Source: Vicinamibacterales bacterium (GTDB lineage Bacteria > Acidobacteriota > Vicinamibacteria > Vicinamibacterales > Fen-181). Taken from it: a DNA stretch of 64,000 nucleotides. Shown here in pieces: positions 9,691-62,301 of this stretch; the stretch's first letter is position 1, and each line of letters starts with the position of its first letter. The notes under the pieces were generated by a model that was not told where the DNA came from, did no database searches, and saw only the letters and a list, made by a program, of their open reading frames with translations. The stretch spans positions 35,079 to 99,078 of the forward strand of contig DASXVO010000076.1 of the NCBI GenBank assembly GCA_036504215.1, written 5' to 3'. The position numbers and the translations under genes are program-made.

Positions 9691-11001
9691 ATGAGCGCGA
9701 ACAACGTCGAATCGCAGGAATCGCACTGGCCGCTCCGGGTTGTCGTCCTGATCTTCGTTGGACTCCTGACCTACGGCAGCTACTTCGCCTACGACAGCGT
9801 CGGGGCGCTCGCGCCGACGCTCATCCAGGCCTGGAACACGAGCCAGAGCGGCATCGGATGGCTCTATACCATCTACAGCATCGCCGCGATCCTGTCGGTG
9901 TTCGTCGGTGGCGTGCTCACCGACCGCATCGGCACCCGCTGGGCGAGCCTGGTCTTCTCCCTCCTCATCGTCATCGGCGCGGGGATGGTGGCGCTGTCCT
10001 CGTCGGTGCCGGTGGCGTGCCTCGGACGCTTCGTCTTCGGCGCGGGGTCCGAGTCGCTCGTCGTCGCGCAGAATGCGATTTTGGCGCGCTGGTTCACCGG
10101 GCGGATGCTGGCGATGTCGTTCGGCGTGACGCTGGCGCTCGCACGGCTCGGGACGCTATTCAGCTTCAACACGATGTCGCTGACGGCGAACCGGTACGGG
10201 TGGCGCGGCGCGCTGTGGGTGGCCGCCGGCCTGTGCGTGGCCAGCCTGGGCGCGAACATCGTCTATTACCTGCTGGACAAGACGAACGAGAGGCGGCTCG
10301 GTCTCGCGGAGACGGAAGCGGGCGACAAGATCGTGCTGGCGGACATCAAGAAGTTCGGCGCGTCCTACTGGTACGTCGTCGCGCTGTGCGTGACGTTCTA
10401 CTCGGCGATTTTCCCGTTTACCGCGCTGTCCACGGACTTCTTCCACGAGAAGTGGCAGTTGCCCCTGAGCGTGGACTCGGGCACGCAGAGCTTCATCGCC
10501 GCGGCGTTCCAGGACTTCCTGCACATGTTCTCGACGGCGCCCGGCACCTCGTCCATCATCATCTTCGCCTCCATGTGCTTCGCCCCGTTCGCGGGCGGCG
10601 TCGTGGACAAGATCGGCAGGCGCACGAGCCTGATGATCGTCGGCGCCCTGCTGATGATTCCATGCTACCTGCTGCTGGCGTTCACCGCCATCGCGCCGGC
10701 GCTGCCGATGATCCTGCTCGGCGCAGCCTTCGTCCTCGTGCCCGCCGCCATGTGGCCGGCCGTGCCGCTCATCGTCGAGAAGAACAGGGTGGGCACCGCA
10801 TTCGGGCTGATGACGATGGTTCAGAACATCGGCCTGGCGGCGTTTCCGCTGCTGAACGGCTGGTTGCGTGAATGGACCAAGGACTACCGGGCGAGCATGG
10901 TGATGTTCGCGCTGCTCGGATGCGCCGGCCTGGTGTTCGCATTCCTGCTGAAGCGCGCGGACACGGCCGCCGGCGGAGTGTTGGAGCAATCCCAGTCGTA
11001 A
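9691..11001 (+). CDS. MFS transporter
   Basis: 436 aa with about 12 hydrophobic segments. Shows the MFS-type loop 'GGVLTDRIGTRWA' and its second-half counterpart 'GGVVDKIGRRTS'. Confidence 0.8.
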   Translation: MSANNVESQESHWPLRVVVLIFVGLLTYGSYFAYDSVGALAPTLIQAWNTSQSGIGWLYTIYSIAAILSVFVGGVLTDRIGTRWASLVFSLLIVIGAGMVALSSSVPVACLGRFVFGAGSESLVVAQNAILARWFTGRMLAMSFGVTLALARLGTLFSFNTMSLTANRYGWRGALWVAAGLCVASLGANIVYYLLDKTNERRLGLAETEAGDKIVLADIKKFGASYWYVVALCVTFYSAIFPFTALSTDFFHEKWQLPLSVDSGTQSFIAAAFQDFLHMFSTAPGTSSIIIFASMCFAPFAGGVVDKIGRRTSLMIVGALLMIPCYLLLAFTAIAPALPMILLGAAFVLVPAAMWPAVPLIVEKNRVGTAFGLMTMVQNIGLAAFPLLNGWLREWTKDYRASMVMFALLGCAGLVFAFLLKRADTAAGGVLEQSQS

Positions 11002-24303: not shown

Positions 24304-24366
24304 AAGGATGAAGGATGAAGGATGAAGGAGCAAGGATGAAGGATGAAGGCGGAGGGAGGAAGGCGG
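24304..24366. repeat. 7-bp tandem array (AAGGATG)n, nine units of which five are perfect
   Basis: Read directly: AAGGATG AAGGATG AAGGATG AAGGAGC AAGGATG AAGGATG AAGGCGG AGGGAGG AAGGCGG. Lies between the modC stop (24372) and the PEGA gene start (24155). Confidence 0.9.
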
Positions 24367-46762: not shown

Positions 46763-48022
46763 ATGTTTACCCGCATTGAAGCCCGGCGATTCCGAAGCCT
46801 CCAGGGCGTAGATCAGAGCTTGGGGCCATTCCGCGCGCTTGTTGGGCCGAACGGGAGCGGAAAGACGACGTTCCTCGACGTCATTGCGTTTCTGAGCGAC
46901 TTGGTCCGCAACCGCGGCGACGTCAGGAAGACCGTTCTTGACCGGAGTTTCACCTTCCAGAAGCTCGTGTGGATGGGTCTGGGAAACAGCTTCCAGTTGG
47001 CGGTCGAGGCCGAGGTGCCAGAGGCGGTTCGACAATCGATGGCGGAGGCCAAGAGGCGGTTCTCGCGAGTGCGGTACGAGATTGAGGTCGCCCTCGATCA
47101 GTCAAATGAGGTCGGGCTCGAACACGAGACACTGTGGCTGATAGAACCGCCAGATGGCAGTCGGTTGACCCAACCGAGGCTGGAGTTTCCGAAGCCGCCA
47201 GGACTTCGCCCGAGTCTGTCGGTCACCTCCGGCCCTTCAAGGCGGGCTGCAATCACGAAGAAGCCTGGTGGCAACGACAACTACTACCCAGAGGGGCGCA
47301 AGTCGTACATGCCCTCGTTCAAGCTCGGCCGGACCAAGTCGGCGCTTGCCCACGTACCGGCCGACGTCGATAGTTTTCCGGTCAGCTCGTGGTTTCGCGA
47401 TCTGCTGGACACGGGTGTCCAGACATTCGCGCTCAACGGACAGGCCATTCGACAACCCAGTGCGCCCGGTGCGGGCCGTCGATTCGTTCCAGATGGCTCG
47501 AATCTCCCGTGGGTTGTGGACGGCCTACGGAGCCACAGGCTGCGTTTTCAACAGTGGCTAGGTCACGTGAAGACCGCACTGCCAGATGTCCTCGACATCG
47601 ACACCGTCGAGCGCCCCGAAGATCGGCACCGTTATCTCGTTCTCTCATACGCCAATGGGGCGAAAGTGCCTTCGTGGTTGGTGTCTGATGGGACACTTCG
47701 TCTGCTTGCTCTCACAATTCCGGCATACCTTCCTGACCTCACTGGCACTTTCTTGATTGAAGAACCGGAAAACGGCATCCATCCGCGAGCCATTGAAACC
47801 GTTATCCAGTCTCTGTCCTCCATCTACACCGGGCAGGTGTTGTTGGCGACTCACAGCGCCGTCGCCCTGAACATGGTGGAACCGCGAAACCTGCTGTGCT
47901 TTGCCAAGGACGCATCCGGTGCAACAGACATCGTTTCTGGCGACGAGCATCCCGCCCTGCGGGACTGGAAGCAAGGACAGCCGGATCTCGGTGTGCTGTT
48001 TGCCGCTGGAATCCTGAGCTGA
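46763..48022 (+). CDS. ABC/OLD-type AAA family ATPase (AAA_21-like)
   Basis: Walker A 'LVGPNGSGKTTFLD', signature-like 'SDGTLRLLAL', Walker B/D-loop 'FLIEEPENGIHP', H-loop 'LLATHS'. A long variable insert sits between the two halves, as in SMC/RecF/OLD-like ATPases. Confidence 0.85.
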   Translation: MFTRIEARRFRSLQGVDQSLGPFRALVGPNGSGKTTFLDVIAFLSDLVRNRGDVRKTVLDRSFTFQKLVWMGLGNSFQLAVEAEVPEAVRQSMAEAKRRFSRVRYEIEVALDQSNEVGLEHETLWLIEPPDGSRLTQPRLEFPKPPGLRPSLSVTSGPSRRAAITKKPGGNDNYYPEGRKSYMPSFKLGRTKSALAHVPADVDSFPVSSWFRDLLDTGVQTFALNGQAIRQPSAPGAGRRFVPDGSNLPWVVDGLRSHRLRFQQWLGHVKTALPDVLDIDTVERPEDRHRYLVLSYANGAKVPSWLVSDGTLRLLALTIPAYLPDLTGTFLIEEPENGIHPRAIETVIQSLSSIYTGQVLLATHSAVALNMVEPRNLLCFAKDASGATDIVSGDEHPALRDWKQGQPDLGVLFAAGILS

Positions 48023-48034
48023 CGGCAACTCGCT

Positions 48035-48637
48035 ATGCGTGACCTTGTTGTGCTCGTGCCGGACAAGAACACTGAGTACGTGGTGCTCGGTGTGCTGTCG
48101 AGGCCGCAAGCGTTGGGCATTCGGGCGATCGACTTCAAGGTCATCGTGGACCCGGGTCATGATGGTGGCGTGCGTCGGCGGGGTGCTCAGATTTTGCACG
48201 TCGAGCGGCACCAGTTCAGTCACGCCGTGCTGATGTTCGATTACGAGGGAAGCGGTGCGACTGAACGACGTTCCGATCTCGAAGCCGGCCTTGACGCAAC
48301 CCTCTCGCAAGATTGGGGTCGAGACGCAAAAACGATCATCATCGAGCCCGAGGTCGATGTGTGGATGTGGGGCGCTGAGGCCCATCTGAAGTCGGTTGTG
48401 CGCTGGAAGTTTCCAGAAGGGATTCGCGATTGGCTCGGTGCCGAATCGTTCTCGTTCACCTCCTCGGGCAAGCCGGTGCGCCCGAAGGAAGCGCTGGAGG
48501 CCGTCTTCCGACGGGCACAGGTGTCAAGGTCGTCTGCGAGCTACCAAGCCCTGGCGAAGAGGCTCAGTCTTGCCCGATGCGAAGACCCTGCGTTCCATCG
48601 ACTGCGGGAGCGGATGGTAGAGTGGTTCGGCAACTGA
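48035..48637 (+). CDS. Hypothetical protein, DUF4276/RloB/Toprim-like partner of the ATPase
   Basis: Starts 12 nt after the ATPase stop. Three blocks follow the layout I recall for DUF4276 (N-terminal acidic strand, central E.E motif, C-terminal C..F helix): 'LVVLVPDKNTEYVVLGVL', 'IIIEPEVDVWMWG' and 'LARCEDPAFHRLRERMVEWF'. The assignment is from memory, not from a search. Confidence 0.55.
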   Translation: MRDLVVLVPDKNTEYVVLGVLSRPQALGIRAIDFKVIVDPGHDGGVRRRGAQILHVERHQFSHAVLMFDYEGSGATERRSDLEAGLDATLSQDWGRDAKTIIIEPEVDVWMWGAEAHLKSVVRWKFPEGIRDWLGAESFSFTSSGKPVRPKEALEAVFRRAQVSRSSASYQALAKRLSLARCEDPAFHRLRERMVEWFGN

Positions 48638-49111
48638 AGTTGGACATTCGACATTCGCTGCTGACGACGGCCCCACCTGCGCCCGTCGGCCCTCATGTGC
48701 GTCCGCCTGCACCGTTCCCACCTGCAGCCTGCTCCATCCCCAACTTCTTCCCTCCAGGCGCACCAGGACGTGAGCGTCTAGACATGAATGAATAGACGTG
48801 GAATTTGTAAGCCATTACAAATAAATGGTTTGGCTCCAGTTTCAGCGCGGGGCTAACCTTCGCTGTCAGCGAACGGTCAAATGCGGCCACACCCGAACGT
48901 CTGAAAAGCGGCCACTGCGGGTAGGGGTGCTCAGGCAACCTATGCGAACGGCTACAGCTTGCCTTGCGCCTGAGAGAAGACGACTGCCGGAGTGGACGGC
49001 CACGTGAGCGGGCCGTGAAATGGGGCTTCTGCAACCATCGCTTCCTCGGCGAGTTGAGCGGGTTCCTCGCTCTATTGCGAGGAGCCCCGCCCTTCGGGGC
49101 ACTGATGCAGT

Positions 49112-49140
49112 TTGAGCCTTCGGCGGTGCGGATCTAGAAT
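49112..49140 (+). promoter_or_regulatory. Candidate promoter of hicBA
   Basis: TTGAGC (49112-49117), a 17-nt spacer, then TAGAAT (49135-49140), 31 nt upstream of the hicB ATG. Preceded by two short GC hairpins (49065-49082 and 49084-49100). Confidence 0.4.
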
Positions 49141-49171
49141 AGGGACGGTATCGGGCAGAAAGGACGTGGCC

Positions 49172-49363
49172 ATGCCGCAGCGGCTGACGATGGTCTACTG
49201 GAAGGGCGAGCAGATGTGGCTTGGCAAGCTGCTCGAATTCCCTGACGTCATGACGCAGGGAGAAACGGTTGAGGAGCTCGAGGAGAACATCAAGGACGCC
49301 TATCGCGTGCTCATCCTCGAGGACGTGCCGGCCGATCACCTGACAAAAGAGATCGCTGTGTGA
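49172..49363 (+). CDS. hicB: HicB-like antitoxin (UPF0150 N-terminal fold only)
   Basis: ATG 49172 with an AAAGGA Shine-Dalgarno sequence. 'MVYWKGEQMWLGKLLEFPDVMTQGETVEELEENIKDAY' is the HicB/UPF0150 pattern. Confidence 0.7.
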   Translation: MPQRLTMVYWKGEQMWLGKLLEFPDVMTQGETVEELEENIKDAYRVLILEDVPADHLTKEIAV

Positions 49364-49539
49364 AGCGCGCGGAGCTGATCCGGCAACTCACCGAGGCCGG
49401 TTGCGTTCTGCTCCGGCACGGCGGTCGGCACGACGCGTACGTCAACCCCCTCACCGGACAGAAGCAACCGATCCCCAGACACGCGGAGATCGACGAGCAT
49501 CTCGCGCGGCATATCAGGAAGTACCTCGGCGTGAAGTAG
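49360..49539 (+). CDS. hicA: HicA family mRNA-interferase toxin
   Basis: Not in the supplied ORF track (59 aa). GTG 49360 overlaps the hicB stop (GTGA). Translation: 'VKRAELIRQLTEAGCVLLRHGGRHDAYVNPLTGQKQPIPRHAEIDEHLARHIRKYLGVK'. This is the YcfA/HicA pattern, including the conserved 'G.H' and 'P.H.E'. Confidence 0.8.
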   Translation: MKRAELIRQLTEAGCVLLRHGGRHDAYVNPLTGQKQPIPRHAEIDEHLARHIRKYLGVK

Positions 49540-49589
49540 GGGCGAGCCGAACTGGCTCGGCGGTACGCCTACGCGTGTACCTGGCTTGG

Positions 49590-49830
49590 AGGTCCGCCTT
49601 CGCGCCTTCGCGCTTCGGCGGGACAGCCTTCGCATAGCTGGGTGGCTTGCCCGGACGAACCTTGCTGGGACGGAGGTGCGCCCTTCGACTCGCAGGTTCG
49701 TGGCCTGCCATGAGCGTGGCCGGCGCGAAGTGGGTGGGAATTGAGGTCCGCCGCCGCAACGCTTCGGGAGGCCGTCGTGCCTCGCGTTGCTTTGGCGGGA
49801 CAGCCTTCGCATGTCTTGCTGGCTTGCCCA
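49590..49830. repeat. Two to three imperfect copies of a local intergenic repeat
   Basis: The exact 19-mer GGCGGGACAGCCTTCGCAT occurs at 49617-49635 and 49794-49812. Each copy is preceded by GAGGTCCGCC and followed by (G)CTGG(G)TGGCTTGCCC. A weaker third copy (GGAGGTGCGCCCTTCGA) lies between them. Confidence 0.6.
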
Positions 49831-49876
49831 GCCGAAGCTCACCGAGGTGAGCGGCAAGCCGACGGTGAGCGAAGGC

Positions 49877-49963
49877 TGGTGCGGAAGGGGGGATTCGAAC
49901 CCCCACGCCCTTGCGGGCGCCAGCCCCTCAAGCTGGTGCGTCTGCCAGTTCCGCCACTTCCGC
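49877..49963 (-). tRNA. tRNA-Leu (anticodon GAG), CCA encoded
   Basis: Hand-folded cloverleaf. Acceptor GCGGAAG/CTTCCGC. Anticodon stem CCAGC/GCTGG with loop TTGAGGG. Long variable arm CGCCCGCAAGGGCG. T-arm GGGGG-TTCGAAT-CCCCC. Discriminator A followed by CCA. Confidence 0.9.
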
Positions 49964-50080
49964 AAATGAGGGACGAACGCGAGAACCGAAATCGTATCAG
50001 ACCTGCGGGCCGCTCGACAACCGCCGATCTGCGTCCTTCTCCCGGCCCGAGCGCGAAGCCTGGAGCCGAGAGCCCGGTCT

Positions 50081-50386
50081 CTACTTCTTCGCTGGCGTCG
50101 CGGGCGCGCTCACCGGGAGCGACTTGCCCGTCAGGACCGACGACGACCCACCGCGCTGCCAGGCGATGCCCAGAACAATCGACCCGACGATGAACAACAC
50201 CGCGGCCACCGTGGTGATCCGGGTGAGCAGCGTCGCGCCAGCCCGGGCACCAAACGCCGTCTGGCTGCCGGCCCCGCCGAAGGCGCTGGCGATGTCACCG
50301 CCGCGTCCCTGCTGGAGCAGGATCACCATCAGGAGCACGAGACAGACGAGGACGTAGAGGATGCTGATAGCGTATTGGAAAACCAC
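50081..50386 (-). CDS. secG: Preprotein translocase subunit SecG
   Basis: 'ILYVLVCLVLLMVILLQQGRGGDIASAFGGAGSQTAFGARAG' is the SecG signature region. Start chosen at GTG 50386 so the N-terminus matches the usual ~25 aa before LQQG; the maximal ORF starts at 50422. Confidence 0.8.
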   Translation of the reverse strand: MVFQYAISILYVLVCLVLLMVILLQQGRGGDIASAFGGAGSQTAFGARAGATLLTRITTVAAVLFIVGSIVLGIAWQRGGSSSVLTGKSLPVSAPATPAKK

Positions 50387-50535
50387 GGCTGCTGATCCCA
50401 ACCGGCCGGCCCGATCGACCACGATCGGAATGGCCTCGTTCGCGGATGCGATGTCAGTACGTCACCGCAACGGCTCGGTATTGCCGAGATGCATCGGTCG
50501 CAGCATGGCCCCGCACCATGCTCGCAAACCACATA

Positions 50536-51303
50536 TTATATCCTGCCGGGCCGGCTCGCCGCCACGATTTCGCTGAATGCGCGCGGATCGAGACTGGCGC
50601 CGCCGACCAGTGCCCCGTCCACGTCCGCCTGGCTGACCAGTTCGCGGGTGTTCGCCGGCTTCACGCTCCCACCGTAGATCACGCGACAGGCGTCCGCGGC
50701 TTCCGCGCCGAACCACTCCCGCAGCCGCAGACGGATGTGCGCGTGCGCTTCCTGCGCCTGCGCCGACGTCGCGTTGCGTCCCGTTCCGATGGCCCACACC
50801 GGCTCGTACGCCACGGCCAGCGACGCCACCTGTTCGGCCGACAGGCCGTCGAGCCCGCGCTTCACGTGCCGATCGAGGACCGCGAGCGTCTTCCCCTGTT
50901 CGCGCTCGTCGAGCGTCTCGCCGATGCAGACGATGGGCGTGAGGCCACCCGCGAGCGCAGCCTTCGTCTTCCTGTTGACCTGCTCGTCGGTCTCGCCGAA
51001 CTTCGTGCGCCGCTCGGAGTGCCCGACGATCACGTAGCGCGCACCGGCCTCCTTCAGCATGCCAACGCTCACCTCGCCGGTGAAGGCGCCTTCTGCCTCC
51101 CAGTAGACGTTCTGACCGGCGATGCCGATGCGCGTGCCCTTCACGGCCTCGGCCGCCGCATGGATGGCCGTGAACGGTGGCGCGAGAACGATCTCGACGT
51201 CGTCAATCCCGGCGACGAGCAGGTGAAAGTCGTATCCGTAGGCCGAGGCCTCCCGGATCGACTTGAACATCTTCCAGTTGGCGGCGACGAACGGGATGCG
51301 CAT
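50536..51303 (-). CDS. tpiA: Triose-phosphate isomerase
   Basis: 'FVAANWKM', 'VIVGHSERR', 'YEPVWAIGTG' and 'IYGGSV' are classical TIM motifs. Confidence 0.95.
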   Translation of the reverse strand: MRIPFVAANWKMFKSIREASAYGYDFHLLVAGIDDVEIVLAPPFTAIHAAAEAVKGTRIGIAGQNVYWEAEGAFTGEVSVGMLKEAGARYVIVGHSERRTKFGETDEQVNRKTKAALAGGLTPIVCIGETLDEREQGKTLAVLDRHVKRGLDGLSAEQVASLAVAYEPVWAIGTGRNATSAQAQEAHAHIRLRLREWFGAEAADACRVIYGGSVKPANTRELVSQADVDGALVGGASLDPRAFSEIVAASRPGRI

Positions 51304-51313
51304 GAAAACCTCA

Positions 51314-51520
51314 GGTGCTAGGGGTGCTGAAGGTGCCAGAGCTGCTTCACGTGCAGTGCCAATCGTGCCACAGGTGCTGGGGGTGGGGGTGCCGAAGGTG
51401 CGGTGCTGCGGGTGCTAGCACGTCCAGCACCCGCACCCTCAGCACCAACAGCACTTGTGGCACCTGCAGCACTGGACCTTCAGCACCTGCAGCACCCGTG
51501 GCACCTCCAGCACCTGCAGT
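51314..51520. repeat. ~200-bp imperfect inverted repeat built from 9-nt-spaced GTGC (left arm) / GCAC (right arm) units
   Basis: It fills the pgk-tpiA spacer. The centre is GCTAGC at 51414-51419. In the left arm GGTGC recurs mostly every 9 nt; in the right arm GCAC recurs every 9 nt about a dozen times. The reverse complement of the right arm aligns with the left arm (e.g. GTGCCACA(G/A)GTGCTG, GGTGCGG(G)TGCTG). Confidence 0.8.
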
Positions 51521-51531
51521 GTGCTGTCCGG

Positions 51532-52722
<1,191 letters not shown>

Positions 52723-52739
52723 GGGAAACCTCCTTGCCC

Positions 52740-53900
<1,161 letters not shown>

Positions 53901-53927
53901 TCAGCCAGCCCGTTGAAACCCGGCCAG

Positions 53928-55259
53928 ATGTATTTCCTCTACACGTGCGTCAGCGTCGTCGCCCTCCTGCTGCTCGGGCCGTACTTCCTGTATCAGGCGG
54001 TGCGGTACCGGAAGTACATCACGAACCTGCGCCAGCGGCTGGGCTACCTTCCGGTGTCGTTCAACGTGGACGGTGAAGAATCGATCTGGATCCACGCCGT
54101 GTCGGTTGGCGAGGCGCTCACGGCGCGGGCGCTGGTCGGCGAACTGCGCAAGCGCTACCCGCGCATGCGGCTGTTCGTCTCCACGACGACGATTGCCGGC
54201 CAGCAGGTGGCCGCACGCGAGATCAAGGACGCCGACGCGCTCTTCTACTTCCCGATCGACTTCAGCTTCATCGTTCAGCGCACGCTGCGGCTCGTCCGGC
54301 CCCGGCTGTTCGTGATGATGGAAACCGAGATCTGGCCGAGCCTGCTTCGCGCCTGCTGTCGCGCGGGGGTGCGCACGGTCGTCGCGAACGGACGGATCTC
54401 GGCGCGGTCGTACCCGCGCTACCGCTGGGTCCGCCCGTTCTTCCGTCGGGTCCTGGCGGACGTCGATCGGTTCTGCATGCAGTCGAGCGAATCGGCGGAG
54501 CGGTTGATCGACCTCGGCGCCGACCCGGCACGCGTGACCGTGACCGGCAATCTCAAGTTCGACGCGCTGCAGGCGCCCGCGACCGCCGGGCAAGAGCGCG
54601 GCGGGCATCGCGTGCTGCGGTTCTTCCGCGTGTCCGAGGGACGGCCGGTCATCGTGGCAGGCTCGACGATGCGGGGTGAGGAGATCCTGGTGCTCCGGGC
54701 GTTCGAGCGCGCGCGCGCCAGCGTGCCACGGGCCCTGCTCATCGTGGCACCGCGCCACACCGAGCGGTTCGACGAGGTCGAACGGCTCGCGCGGGAAGAG
54801 GGGTTCCGGACCGCGCGCCGGACGATGCTGACGATCGACGAAGAACCCGCGGCGGACGTGGTCGTGCTCGACACGATCGGCGAACTCGCCCACTTGTACC
54901 GGCTGGCGACGCTCGTGTTCGTCGGCGGCAGCCTCGTGTCCACGGGTGGCCACAACATCCTCGAGCCGGCGGTCTACGGGCGGCCGATCCTTTTCGGTCC
55001 GCACATGCAGAACTTCAAGGAAATCGCGGCGACGTTTCTCGAGGCGGACGCCGCTGTCCAGGTGGGAGACGAGCGGGAACTGGGATCGGTCTTCCGCGAC
55101 CTGCTGGACGACGAGTCGCGGCGCGCGCGGATGGGTGGCGCGGCACGGGCGATCATCGACGCCAGCCACGGGGCGCGTGAACGGACGCTGTCGGTCATCG
55201 CGGAACTGCTGCCGCCGGGCGAAGGGCCGACGGTGCGTTCCTTCCGGCTCGTGAAGTAG
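53928..55259 (+). CDS. waaA: 3-deoxy-D-manno-octulosonic acid (Kdo) transferase
   Basis: N-terminal TM helix, then '[26 protein letters not shown]...[10 protein letters not shown]', which aligns with E. coli WaaA 'IMLHSVSVGETLAAIPLVRALRHRYP...ITVTTMTPTG'. Confidence 0.85.
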
Positions 55260-60573: not shown

Positions 60574-62301
60574 ATGTGCGGCATCCTGACGATTCTCAAC
60601 ATCGACGGGACGCGCTCCAATCCAGCCGAATTGCGCCGTCAGGCGCTGGTCATGGCCAAGAAGCTCCGCCATCGCGGCCCGGACTGGAGCGGCATCTACA
60701 GTGACGAGCACGCCGTGCTGGCCCACGAGCGGCTGTCGATCGTGGACGTCGAACACGGGGCACAACCGCTGATCGATCGCCTCGAAGGCACGGTGCTCTC
60801 GGTGAACGGGGAAATCTACAATCACAAGGCCCTGCAGCGGGGCCTGCGGCGCCCCCACGATTTCCAGACGCTGTCGGACTGCGAGGTCATCCTCTACCTC
60901 TACGACGAACTGCCGCCGAAGGAGTTCCTGAACCGGATGAACGGGATCTTCGCGTTCGTCATCCACGATCCCAAGCGCAGGACGTTCCTGATTGCGCGCG
61001 ACCCGATCGGCGTCGTGCCGCTCTACGTCGGGTGGGATCGGCGGGAGAATTTCTACGCCGCGTCCGAGATGAAGGCCCTCGTGGGACACTGCGAGCGGAT
61101 CCAGGAGTTCCCTCCCGGGCACTACTATCTCGGCCACGAAGCCGAGAAGGGATTCCAGCGCTACTACGAGCCGGCGTGGGCCGAGCCGGGCGTGTATCCG
61201 ACGACGCCGTACGACCCGGTGATACTCCGCGAGGCGCTGGAAGCCTCGGTCCACCGGCAGTTGATGTGCGATGTGCCGTACGGCGTGCTCATCTCGGGCG
61301 GCGTCGATTCGTCGATCATCGCGGCGATCGCGGCGCGGTTCAGCCAGCGGCGGATCGAGGAGGACGACAAGGCGTTGGCGTGGTGGCCCCGCCTGCACTC
61401 GTTCGCGGTTGGCCTCGAGGGCGCGCCCGACCTGGCCCCCGCCCGCACCGTCGCCGAGCACATCGGCGCGGTGCACCACGAGATCCAGTTCACCGTGCAG
61501 GAGGGCCTCGACGCGTTGTCGGACGTCATCTACCACCTCGAGACGTTCGACATCACGACGATCCGGGCGGCCACGCCGATGTATCTCATGATGCGGAAGA
61601 TCCGCGCGATGGGCATCAAGATGATCCTGTCGGGCGAGGGGGCCGACGAGGTGTTCGGGGGCTACCTCTACTTTCACAAGGCGCCGAACGGCCACGAGTT
61701 GCACGACGAGACGGTGCGCAAGATCCAGAAGCTGCATCTCTACGACTGCCTGCGGGCGAACAAGGCGAGCTGCGCGTGGGGTGTCGAGGCGCGCGTGCCG
61801 TATCTCGACCGCGAGTTCCTCGACGTGGCGATGAGTCTCGACCCGGACGTGAAGATTCCGCGCAACGCGCCGCACCCGCGGCCCATCGAGAAGTATCCCC
61901 TGCGCAAGGCGTTCGAGGGCTACGTGCCGCACGAGGTGCTGTGGCGGCAGAAGGAGCAGTTCTCCGACGGGGTCGGCTACTCGTGGATCAACTCGCTGAA
62001 GGCCACGGCCGAGGGTGAGGTCACCGACGGCATGATGCGGGGCGTGAACGAGCGGTTTCCGACCAAGACGCCGGAGACGAAGGAAGCGTACCTCTATCGG
62101 CAGATTTTCGAGCTGCACTTCCCCTCGGCCAGCGCGGTGAACTGCGTGCCGCACGAGCGGAGCGTGGCCTGCAGCACGGCGACGGCGCTGGCATGGGACG
62201 CCGCATTCCAGGCGATGGTGGATCCGTCGGGCCGCGCCGTGATGGACGTCCACAACGACAGCCTGAGCCAGGAGCCGGGAGCCCGGGGCCCGAAGCCGTG
62301 A
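60574..62301 (+). CDS. asnB: Asparagine synthase B (glutamine-hydrolysing)
   Basis: ATG 60574 with a GGAGGAGG Shine-Dalgarno sequence. 'MCGI...' N-terminal nucleophile Cys. Near-collinear with E. coli AsnB ('HRGPDWSGIY', 'LAHERLSIVD', 'VPYGVLISGGVDSS', 'LSGEGADEVFGGYLYFHKAP', 'WRQKEQFSDGVGYSWI'). Confidence 0.9.
   Translation: MCGILTILNIDGTRSNPAELRRQALVMAKKLRHRGPDWSGIYSDEHAVLAHERLSIVDVEHGAQPLIDRLEGTVLSVNGEIYNHKALQRGLRRPHDFQTLSDCEVILYLYDELPPKEFLNRMNGIFAFVIHDPKRRTFLIARDPIGVVPLYVGWDRRENFYAASEMKALVGHCERIQEFPPGHYYLGHEAEKGFQRYYEPAWAEPGVYPTTPYDPVILREALEASVHRQLMCDVPYGVLISGGVDSSIIAAIAARFSQRRIEEDDKALAWWPRLHSFAVGLEGAPDLAPARTVAEHIGAVHHEIQFTVQEGLDALSDVIYHLETFDITTIRAATPMYLMMRKIRAMGIKMILSGEGADEVFGGYLYFHKAPNGHELHDETVRKIQKLHLYDCLRANKASCAWGVEARVPYLDREFLDVAMSLDPDVKIPRNAPHPRPIEKYPLRKAFEGYVPHEVLWRQKEQFSDGVGYSWINSLKATAEGEVTDGMMRGVNERFPTKTPETKEAYLYRQIFELHFPSASAVNCVPHERSVACSTATALAWDAAFQAMVDPSGRAVMDVHNDSLSQEPGARGPKP

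Follow-up and report, generated by a model that had tools for sequence, protein, structure and literature searches.

The 228-bp spacer that separates pgk from tpiA in an uncultured soil bacterium of the Vicinamibacterales (Acidobacteriota; contig DASXVO010000076.1) is filled almost completely by an imperfect inverted repeat centered on GCTAGC, and we describe this element here within the 64,000-nt stretch of the contig that was analyzed, referred to as the window. Our assessment, made with moderate confidence, is that it is an inverted pair of degenerate 9-nt tandem arrays, that is, a long-unit simple-sequence repeat (SSR) that has grown in place. The element belongs to a class of short-unit intergenic arrays of Vicinamibacteria in which the unit varies both among sites and among genomes; it has two arms of opposite orientation and occupies an operon junction at which such arrays are concentrated. 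It is a representative of a known kind of repeat and not a new system: the closest described kind is that of the paired inverted heptamer arrays of Xanthomonas, with a looser likeness to the short tandemly repeated repetitive (STRR) sequences of cyanobacteria and the TAACTGA repeats of Beggiatoaceae.

Anatomy of the inverted array

The original prediction placed an imperfect inverted repeat of GTGC/GCAC units in the spacer, and both its coordinates and its anatomy are correct. The unit has a degenerate 9-nt consensus of about AGGTGCTGN, and its copies, of which each arm contains about 10, run head to tail, as do the 5-11-nt units of long-unit SSRs and STRR-like repeats. Tandem Repeats Finder (TRF) assigns the element a period of 9 and 12.2 copies at only 63% matches, and autocorrelation peaks at lag 9 (0.53 and 0.62). 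The starts of GTGC in the left arm are spaced by 9, 9, 18, 5, 9, 9, 15, 9, 5, and 9 nt, and those of GCAC in the right arm by 9, 6, 9, 9, 9, 9, 14, 9, 9, and 9 nt. A core-to-core distance of 9 nt thus accounts for six of ten intervals (plus one of 18) in one arm and for eight of ten in the other, which agrees with a phasing of mostly 9 nt and makes its description as strict an overstatement. Matches to GGTGCN4GGTGC with at most one mismatch number 31 in the window, compared with 11.3 +/- 3.2 in shuffles; 16 of them lie inside the spacer and the remainder are scattered singles.

The two arms are about 75% complementary and differ in GC skew (mRNA sense; coordinates in Table 1): the 5' arm has a value of +0.38, and the 3' arm, which contains an irregular stretch around 51340-51362, one of -0.28. 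The unit GGTGCYNN carries no run of three or more G, with a single exception, GGGGGTGGGGG at 51379-51389. A period-3 substructure is also present within the 9-nt unit, with raised autocorrelation at lags 3, 6, 12, 15, and 18. Because CTGCAG, with its CAG/CTG-like triplets, is frequent in both arms, either arm could also fold back on itself in a shifted register.

The pgk stop codon (TAG, 51532-51534) and the tpiA start codon (ATG, 51301-51303) both lie on the minus strand, and a gap of the same 228 nt is obtained from the gene calls on an identical public locus (L081) with matching Pfam labels. Since metagenome assemblers can mis-assemble repeats and palindromes, an artefact such as a fold-back chimera or a collapsed repeat has to be considered, but we judge it extremely unlikely. 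The spacer is 100% identical in a Joint Genome Institute (JGI) contig and in a Logan assembly, with JGI 3300035523 and SRR11794808 as the source data, so that it cannot be put down to one assembler alone, even if these two assemblies possibly come from one and the same sample; a third-party annotation (TPA) protein record at NCBI from a metagenome-assembled genome (MAG) is identical as well. Moreover, the arms are far from perfectly complementary, the flanking genes are intact and in normal order, and dozens of independent MAGs, including long-read assemblies, contain analogous arrays at the same place. The exact TpiA protein is found only on identical contigs, the next best match among 5.8 billion proteins being 82% identical. 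When the comparison is made with species-representative genomes, Vicinamibacteria MAGs match best, at 60-82% identity.

The prediction that the spacer is noncoding holds, as no Pfam family matches the three open reading frames (ORFs) or frames of the spacer and the pgk/tpiA frame stops after 30 codons. Read-through of the pgk TAG was rejected as a candidate on the same ground, because that frame closes at a TGA. PGK-TIM fusions exist in Thermotoga, and a decayed coding sequence, either the Ala/Pro/Val-rich linker of a former Pgk-TpiA fusion or a small repeat protein, would suit a spacer of exactly 76 codons, a unit of three codons, and the period-3 signal in the arms. It would also suit the GGTGCC/GGCACC units that encode EVP/KVP and APQ linkers in E2 acyltransferases (L163 and L134, discussed below). 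This explanation nevertheless deserves hardly any credence: pgk ends in TAG ahead of the TGA, the spacer ORFs match no family, most same-site arrays in relatives have 7- or 8-nt units that cannot be coding, and an open pgk-linker-tpiA frame occurs in 0 of 78 relatives examined. Nor is the element a CRISPR array, in which direct repeats of 23-50 bp alternate with unique spacers of about equal length, again as predicted, given that its period is 9 nt, it has no spacers, and its halves are inverted. A scan of 49000-54000 against Rfam 15 (E <= 1) returned only the tRNA-Leu and sub-threshold matches to eukaryotic miRNA precursors, which are generic hairpins.

Predicted folding and pairing of the arms

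Folded as sense RNA, the spacer reaches -138.5 kcal/mol, compared with -102.8 +/- 5.0 for dinucleotide shuffles (z = -7.2, with 0 of 200 as good). The main hairpin and a small hairpin at its 5' side together comprise 82 predicted pairs, eight of them G-U, which upholds the claim that the operon mRNA could form a long imperfect hairpin. Some pairing would arise between any two arrays with complementary cores, and for this reason the fold was also compared with a null in which the core pentamers were fixed and only the variable positions were shuffled. This null averages -117.4 +/- 5.8, and the spacer still stands out (z = -3.6, with 1 of 300 as good); therefore, the arms mirror each other beyond the core motif. 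The spacer also folds well as DNA (z = -5.5).

That DNA hairpin, together with the regular core pentamer and the sense/antisense symmetry described below, is what a feature acting at the DNA level would rest on, whether a phased array of GGTGC sites every 9 bp, bound by a regulatory or nucleoid protein, or else a non-B structure such as a cruciform with an influence on replication or transcription. Such a feature is very unlikely. A 9-bp phasing places successive sites on different faces of the helix, the imperfect complementarity of the arms disfavors cruciform extrusion, and GGTGC lacks the G-tracts of a quadruplex. In addition, the core motif is not common to the same-site arrays of relatives, and thus no common binding protein is implied. 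The suggestion that the phasing is reminiscent of a protein-binding array found nothing in its support.

Short-unit arrays across Vicinamibacteria

To place the element among its relatives, we used the tpiA loci of 80 species-level relatives, in each of which pgk and tpiA were located (individual loci are designated L001 and so on). In the 1.32 Mb formed by these loci and the window, TRF with a period of 5-12 and at least 3.5 copies detects 147 arrays, 126 of which are intergenic according to a crude gene caller based on G+C content at third codon positions (GC3). Units of 7 nt account for 86 of the intergenic arrays, those of 9 nt for 20, and those of 8 nt for 12; almost all of the units are different, and the density of the arrays corresponds to about one per 10 kb. 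Many of the arrays are paired in inverted orientation and form long hairpins, whereas the others have one side only; examples are found in L033 (129-10876, with 10 arrays within 20 kb), L028 (256-9988), L003 (6165-6267 and 16418-16521), and L017 (15681-15823). Folds with z < -3, scored against mononucleotide shuffles, occur in 42% of the array-bearing gaps versus 11% of the array-free gaps.

The arms of these hairpins are arranged in a preferred order. Of 58 intergenic hairpins of L001-L080, 40 have the G-rich arm on the 5' side (p = 0.005), as do 25 of the 33 with strong skew (p = 0.0046), and the element in the window conforms to this order. The bias does not depend on the strand that is read or transcribed, because the reverse complement of a palindrome with a G-rich arm followed by a C-rich arm is again a G-rich arm followed by a C-rich arm.

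In some relatives, one unit recurs at several loci of the genome, as with CGCAAGAT at three sites in L002 and CACGAAGG at two sites in L032. This recurrence, the palindromic architecture, and the intergenic position are what would be expected if a mobile or dispersed palindromic element had inserted between pgk and tpiA, comparable to repetitive extragenic palindromic (REP) sequences or bacterial interspersed mosaic elements (BIME), miniature inverted-repeat transposable elements (MITE), or enterobacterial repetitive intergenic consensus (ERIC) sequences. We consider such an insertion highly improbable. The 64-kb window contains no other array of the GGTGC unit and no comparable long inverted repeat, and hence none of the many copies of a conserved 20-40-bp palindrome that characterize REP/BIME sequences; the units differ at nearly every site in relatives, the internal tandem periodicity is foreign to REP and MITE sequences, and Rfam offers no real match. 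The flanks, CCGGACAGCACAC... and ...TGAGGTTTTC, share no direct repeat, so that the flanking duplication of a MITE is not visible, and, as read by eye, the ends of the element carry no terminal GTAG or CGTC tag. The REP/BIME-like identity that had been proposed is therefore not supported.

TRF detects only two further arrays in the window, AAGGATG at 24304-24349 and GAGCCCG at 62265-62297. The region of the former (24304-24363) consists of 6.6 tandem copies of AAGGATG, which can also be read as 2.9 copies of a 21-nt super-unit, and lies in a 342-nt gap between minus-strand genes. This array is not hairpin-forming (z = +1.6), and its unit reads on the plus strand like a Shine-Dalgarno sequence plus ATG.

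The pgk-tpiA junction in relatives

The statement that pgk and tpiA are normally tightly linked is half true in the comparison set. Spacer length is bimodal, with about 40 relatives at 60 nt or less and 32 of 74 at 70 nt or more, up to 328 nt. Most of the long spacers are built of short tandem units, often in two inverted arms, and the unit differs by genome: GGTGGCT in L004, GAATTGC in L010, CACGCAG in L014, CTTCGGG in L018, GGGCAGGTA in L028, CACGTGC over 361 nt in L050, GGACCGT in L053, CCCCATG in L064, and GCTTACG in L065. Two MAGs of Luteitalea, L065 and L067, are among the relatives with an array-bearing spacer. The closest relatives, with 77-82% TpiA identity, have either other units or a spacer of only 7-13 nt.

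Arrays are present in 23 of 74 pgk-tpiA gaps (31%) compared with 59 of 892 other gaps (6.6%; Fisher p = 3e-9), and nine of 70 relatives also have one between gap and pgk. Among gaps of 60-450 nt, folds with z < -3 are found in 18 of 34 at pgk-tpiA versus 48 of 362 elsewhere (p = 3e-7). As the loci are not phylogenetically independent, these counts demonstrate recurrence or persistence of arrays at the junction and not necessarily repeated gain. With regard to the original prediction, which counted absence or lack of conservation in close relatives among the evidence that would speak against it, the sequence is indeed unconserved, yet a hairpin-forming array recurs at this site far above its frequency elsewhere.

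Two relatives have an altered junction: in L069 (7651-10001), pgk and tpiA are 2349 nt apart with something inserted between them, and in L022 (10791-11951), pgk lies downstream of tpiA on the opposite strand in a rearranged locus. In the closest clade, the tpiA-secG spacers are also long (130-190 nt; L084 10769-10958, L085 7733-7904, and L086 10769-10900) and contain hairpin-forming repeats of their own, with GGGCGAGGC...GCCTTGCCC and GGGCGACCCTT units, while the tpiA-secG spacer of the window measures 113 nt.

Proposed growth in place

Under the account that we favor, arrays would arise by replication slippage from a local seed, combined with an inverted duplication or a fold-back event. Such an origin would account for the single copy of the unit in short spacers of sister genomes. 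The 7-nt spacer of L083 (9994-10000) is AGCACCT, the unit of the window, and the 13-nt spacer of L003 (about 9988-10000), ATAGCTGGTGGTTC (GCTGGTGG), contains one copy of the unit of L002 and L004; in L033, the unit GTAGGCA begins within the stop codon. This pattern fits slippage growth in place, or collapse to one unit, better than foreign insertion. The 5' part of the spacer in the closest clade contains related but different G-rich units, GCTGGTGGCTGG in L002, repeated GGTGGCT in L004, GCCGGTGGTCGG in L001, and GGTGCTGNA in the window, and the 3' part, just before the ATG, contains CAACTGG/CCACTGA/GCCACTA units. The same origin would also account for the agreement of the arms at variable positions and not at the cores alone, and the mirrored variable positions of the element fit an array that had already become heterogeneous when it was duplicated in inverted form.

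Metagenomes scanned for a run of four GGTGCN4 units gave at least 120 loci. Among the matches listed, most are one-sided arrays in long open frames that differ widely in G+C content and code for Gly-Ala-X or linker repeats, and the contig of the window itself does not appear. Four palindromic cases, again among the matches listed, lie in contigs of 64% G+C (L168, L172, L163, and L134). The palindromic array follows the stop codon of a gene in L168 and overlaps the 3' end of a gene in L172, whereas L163 (517-705) and L134 (3196-3340) have palindromic GGTGCC/GGCACC 9-nt arrays inside the Ala/Pro/Val-rich flexible linker of E2 (dihydrolipoamide acyltransferase). There, one arm encodes EVP/KVP and the inverted arm APQ, so that a DNA palindrome is read as protein. 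With a unit that is divisible by three, the same architecture thus arises even within a coding linker, which speaks for a mutational process at the level of DNA.

Several points weigh against growth in place as a sufficient explanation. The enrichment of arrays at pgk-tpiA and of hairpins in its long spacers exceeds the prediction of a purely neutral model and could mean selection. The counts across relatives are not phylogenetically independent, the intergenic calls depend on the crude GC3-based caller, and the comparison of array-bearing with array-free gaps used mononucleotide shuffles. The 7-8-nt seed matches could be coincidence, or collapsed arrays in place of seeds. The search for copies covered 64 kb of this genome, which leaves room for a dispersed family of the same unit elsewhere, and every step of the proposed course of events beyond transcription of the array is one that we infer.

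Proposed consequences in the message and a test for selection at the RNA level

The array would be transcribed within a gap-pgk-tpiA-secG message. It must be transcribed because tpiA, which starts 5 nt past the foot of the helix, has no room for a promoter of its own, and no promoter-like site was found. The scan for terminator and promoter consensus sequences, which used a general promoter consensus from which acidobacterial promoters may differ and recognizes only simple stems of up to 20 pairs, returned nothing in the spacer. A likeness of TGGCAC/TGTGGCAC to a sigma-54 promoter or a DnaA box, noticed by eye, was rejected since the spacing and the second element do not fit.

Once transcribed, the array is predicted to fold into an imperfect duplex of about 80 bp. 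Long RNA duplexes are substrates of RNase III-type endonucleases and barriers to 3' exonucleases in bacterial RNA decay, and the predicted 82-pair duplex provides the approximately 20 bp or more of double-stranded RNA typical of an RNase III-type site. If the duplex were cleaved, gap-pgk would retain a protective stem at its 3' side, and tpiA-secG would acquire a new 5' end. Where the stem ends, the GG of the tpiA GAGG (51309-51310) is predicted to pair in a weak 3-bp terminal helix followed by four U. The foot would thereby cover part of the Shine-Dalgarno sequence of tpiA and might mask the ribosome-binding site to some degree or cause weak attenuation. Past its foot, the stem gives way to UUUUCAUG, at the position where an intrinsic terminator has a U-tract directly after its G+C-rich stem, but full termination at this point is implausible because tpiA is essential, starts 5 nt later, and lacks its own promoter. 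The expected net effect would be that the pgk and tpiA parts of the message are split or decoupled, and a role as stabilizer, processing site, or decoupler, as originally proposed, is plausible as a physical consequence of the modeled hairpin. We lean toward viewing this effect as tolerated or tunable and not as essential, because half of the relatives do without such an element.

A stronger version holds that the hairpin is a selected regulatory RNA that sets the pgk:tpiA ratio, with the units as raw material and their copy number as a tuning knob, and that it serves as a processing site, stabilizes the gap-pgk message at its 3' side, attenuates transcription, and/or masks the ribosome-binding site of tpiA. 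We rate this version as a serious competitor but an unlikely one. The roughly 5-fold enrichment of arrays at pgk-tpiA and the excess of hairpins in its long gaps (53% versus 13%) speak for it, as do the recurrence of hairpin potential with unrelated units (L002, L010, L013, L028, L048, L050, L053, L065, and L067), the complementarity of the arms beyond their cores, the paired GG of the tpiA GAGG, and the UUUU run after the stem. However, about 55% of the relatives have a spacer of 60 nt or less and no hairpin, including two of the closest (L003 with 13 nt and L083 with 7 nt), and several arrays at the junction are one-sided and do not fold (L007, L014, and L026). The same architecture also occurs in all kinds of gaps and even in coding linkers, and the enrichment could stem from shared ancestry or from a mutational hot spot in a highly transcribed operon.

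A comparison of strands bears on the same question, since a selected transcript structure is expected to tolerate G-U pairs on the sense strand only. Over 30 array hairpins between co-directional genes, the median difference between sense and antisense folding energy is -2.4 kcal/mol, with the sense strand favored in 17 of 30 (Wilcoxon p = 0.46), and G-U pairs number 174 in sense versus 173 in antisense. Neither an energy difference nor a G-U excess on the sense strand is thus seen, and these values give no pointer to RNA-specific selection, in a test whose power is limited and in which young palindromes are symmetric anyway.

A broader proposal is that Vicinamibacteria repeatedly build long hairpins out of self-expanding tandem repeats at pgk-tpiA, and less so at gap-pgk, since selection favors a structural break in the glycolytic message. 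We regard it as doubtful. If it were true, the arrays would constitute an evolvable device, with processing, stability, and tpiA translation tuned through the number of copies and the symmetry of the arms; sequence would turn over while structure is retained across a whole bacterial class; and the strand-symmetric preference for the G-rich arm in 5' position, common with Xanthomonas, would reflect a shared mechanism that makes or uses inverted arrays.

Relation to known repeat systems

In Xanthomonas, each genome contains 70-75 pairs of GGGAATC arrays in convergent orientation; their positions are mostly conserved while their length and sequence vary, and they are transcribed, capable of forming stem-loops, and of unknown function (Rehm et al. 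2015, PMC4692102). As in the pgk-tpiA element, these are intergenic arrays of a short unit, frequently paired on opposite strands and convergent, with the G-rich arm first. The element of the window likewise consists of two arrays of one unit on opposite strands in convergent orientation, but its unit is 9 nt long, lacks G-tracts and thus quadruplex potential, and is far more degenerate, and its host belongs to another phylum. Furthermore, one unit dominates the genome in Xanthomonas, whereas nearly every site has its own unit in Vicinamibacteria.

The STRR heptamers of cyanobacteria and the TAACTGA repeats of Beggiatoaceae are intergenic, form many arrays per genome, and differ among close relatives; their function is unknown, although proposals have been made of a part in mRNA or in translation (PMC4679880). 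An STRR array can also occupy an intercistronic operon spacer, as between pecE and pecF in Nostoc. Similar to the pgk-tpiA element, the STRR sequences of heterocystous cyanobacteria and TAACTGA are tandem units of the 7-nt class in intergenic DNA, including intercistronic spacers. They nevertheless fall, in any one genome, into a small number of defined unit families, most of them as direct arrays with one side, while those of Vicinamibacteria are idiosyncratic and often palindromic; the 9-nt period of the element also differs from the heptanucleotide unit of STRR sequences in the strict sense.

Intercistronic RNase III hairpins, as in the early mRNA of phage T7 and in rpsO-pnp, and the processed gap-pgk message of Zymomonas mobilis, in which the duplex is cut or forms a barrier to decay, give the two halves of an operon different half-lives. 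The element resembles RNase III sites in that a long imperfect duplex lies between cistrons, but those sites are 20-40 bp long, of unique sequence, and experimentally mapped, whereas the duplex of the element is about 80 bp long, built of repeats, and predicted only. RNA hairpins of REP sequences shield the upstream message from 3' exonucleases and lead to differential expression within an operon, for example in malE-malF. REPs are conserved 20-40-bp units with hundreds of copies and GTAG/CGTC tags, mobilized by REP-associated tyrosine transposases (RAYT) (PMC3733652). The REP/BIME sequences of enterobacteria and pseudomonads share with the element the form of an extragenic palindrome, often between genes of one operon, but their conserved unit, copy number, tags, and RAYT mobilization are not seen in the window.

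No paper that connects Vicinamibacter with tandem repeats and intergenic regions emerged from a full-text literature search, which makes it likely that the pervasive intergenic arrays of 7-9 nt have yet to be described for the class. Vicinamibacteria are abundant and poorly studied soil bacteria, and the arrays bear on assembly quality, operon prediction, and strain typing. An orthologous spacer that is filled with arrays of unrelated sequence in about one third of the genomes offers a natural test of selected structure versus mutational debris, a question still open for the STRR sequences of cyanobacteria and the heptamers of Xanthomonas. A predicted RNA duplex of about 80 bp in an essential glycolytic operon must affect the processing of the message. 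The pgk-tpiA locus of this genome matters little by itself, being a lineage-typical repeat in a tolerant spot; the main interest lies in the class-wide recurrence at one operon junction and in the bias of arm orientation that is common with Xanthomonas.

Genomic context

The features of the element and of the surrounding gene cluster are listed in Table 1.

Table 1. Features of the pgk-tpiA spacer and adjoining genes (positions in the window).
Feature	Position	Strand	Remarks
gap	52740-53747	-	upstream of pgk
pgk (phosphoglycerate kinase)	51532..52722	-	upstream of the spacer; PF00162 on the identical locus L081
pgk-tpiA intercistronic spacer	51304..51531	-	228 nt, equal to 76 codons; not an open frame
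Small 5' hairpin CAGCAC/GUGCUG	51508..51526	-	just after the pgk stop; in minimum free energy (MFE) and centroid structures
5' arm (mRNA sense)	51420..51515	-	~11 units (A/G)GGTGCYNN, mostly 9 nt; plus strand reads GCACC units
Main predicted RNA hairpin	51308..51502	-	spacer positions 30-224
Palindrome center GCTAGC	51414..51419		part of the perfect 10-bp palindrome GTGCTAGCAC
3' arm (mRNA sense)	51312..51413	-	GCACC-type units, more degenerate; plus strand reads GGTGC units
tpiA ribosome-binding region GAGGUUUUC	51304..51312	-	Shine-Dalgarno role inferred from sequence and 5-nt distance to ATG
tpiA (triose-phosphate isomerase)	50536..51303	-	downstream of the spacer
secG	50081-50422	-	same cluster as gap, pgk, and tpiA
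tRNA-Leu	49877-49963	-	last member of the gap/pgk/tpiA/secG cluster

Just downstream of the tRNA-Leu(GAG), two direct copies of a 51-nt G+C-rich element (49612-49662 and 49789-49839) are 84% identical and 177 nt apart, with no Rfam match at E <= 1. A small island with a weaker coding-composition signal adjoins the same tRNA gene (47536-49539, according to the gene calls on L081). It contains a HicA-toxin-like gene (49360-49539) with a partner ORF upstream (49166-49363), a 200-aa gene (48035-48637), and an SMC_N/AAA_21 ATPase, and may represent a toxin-antitoxin and defense island.

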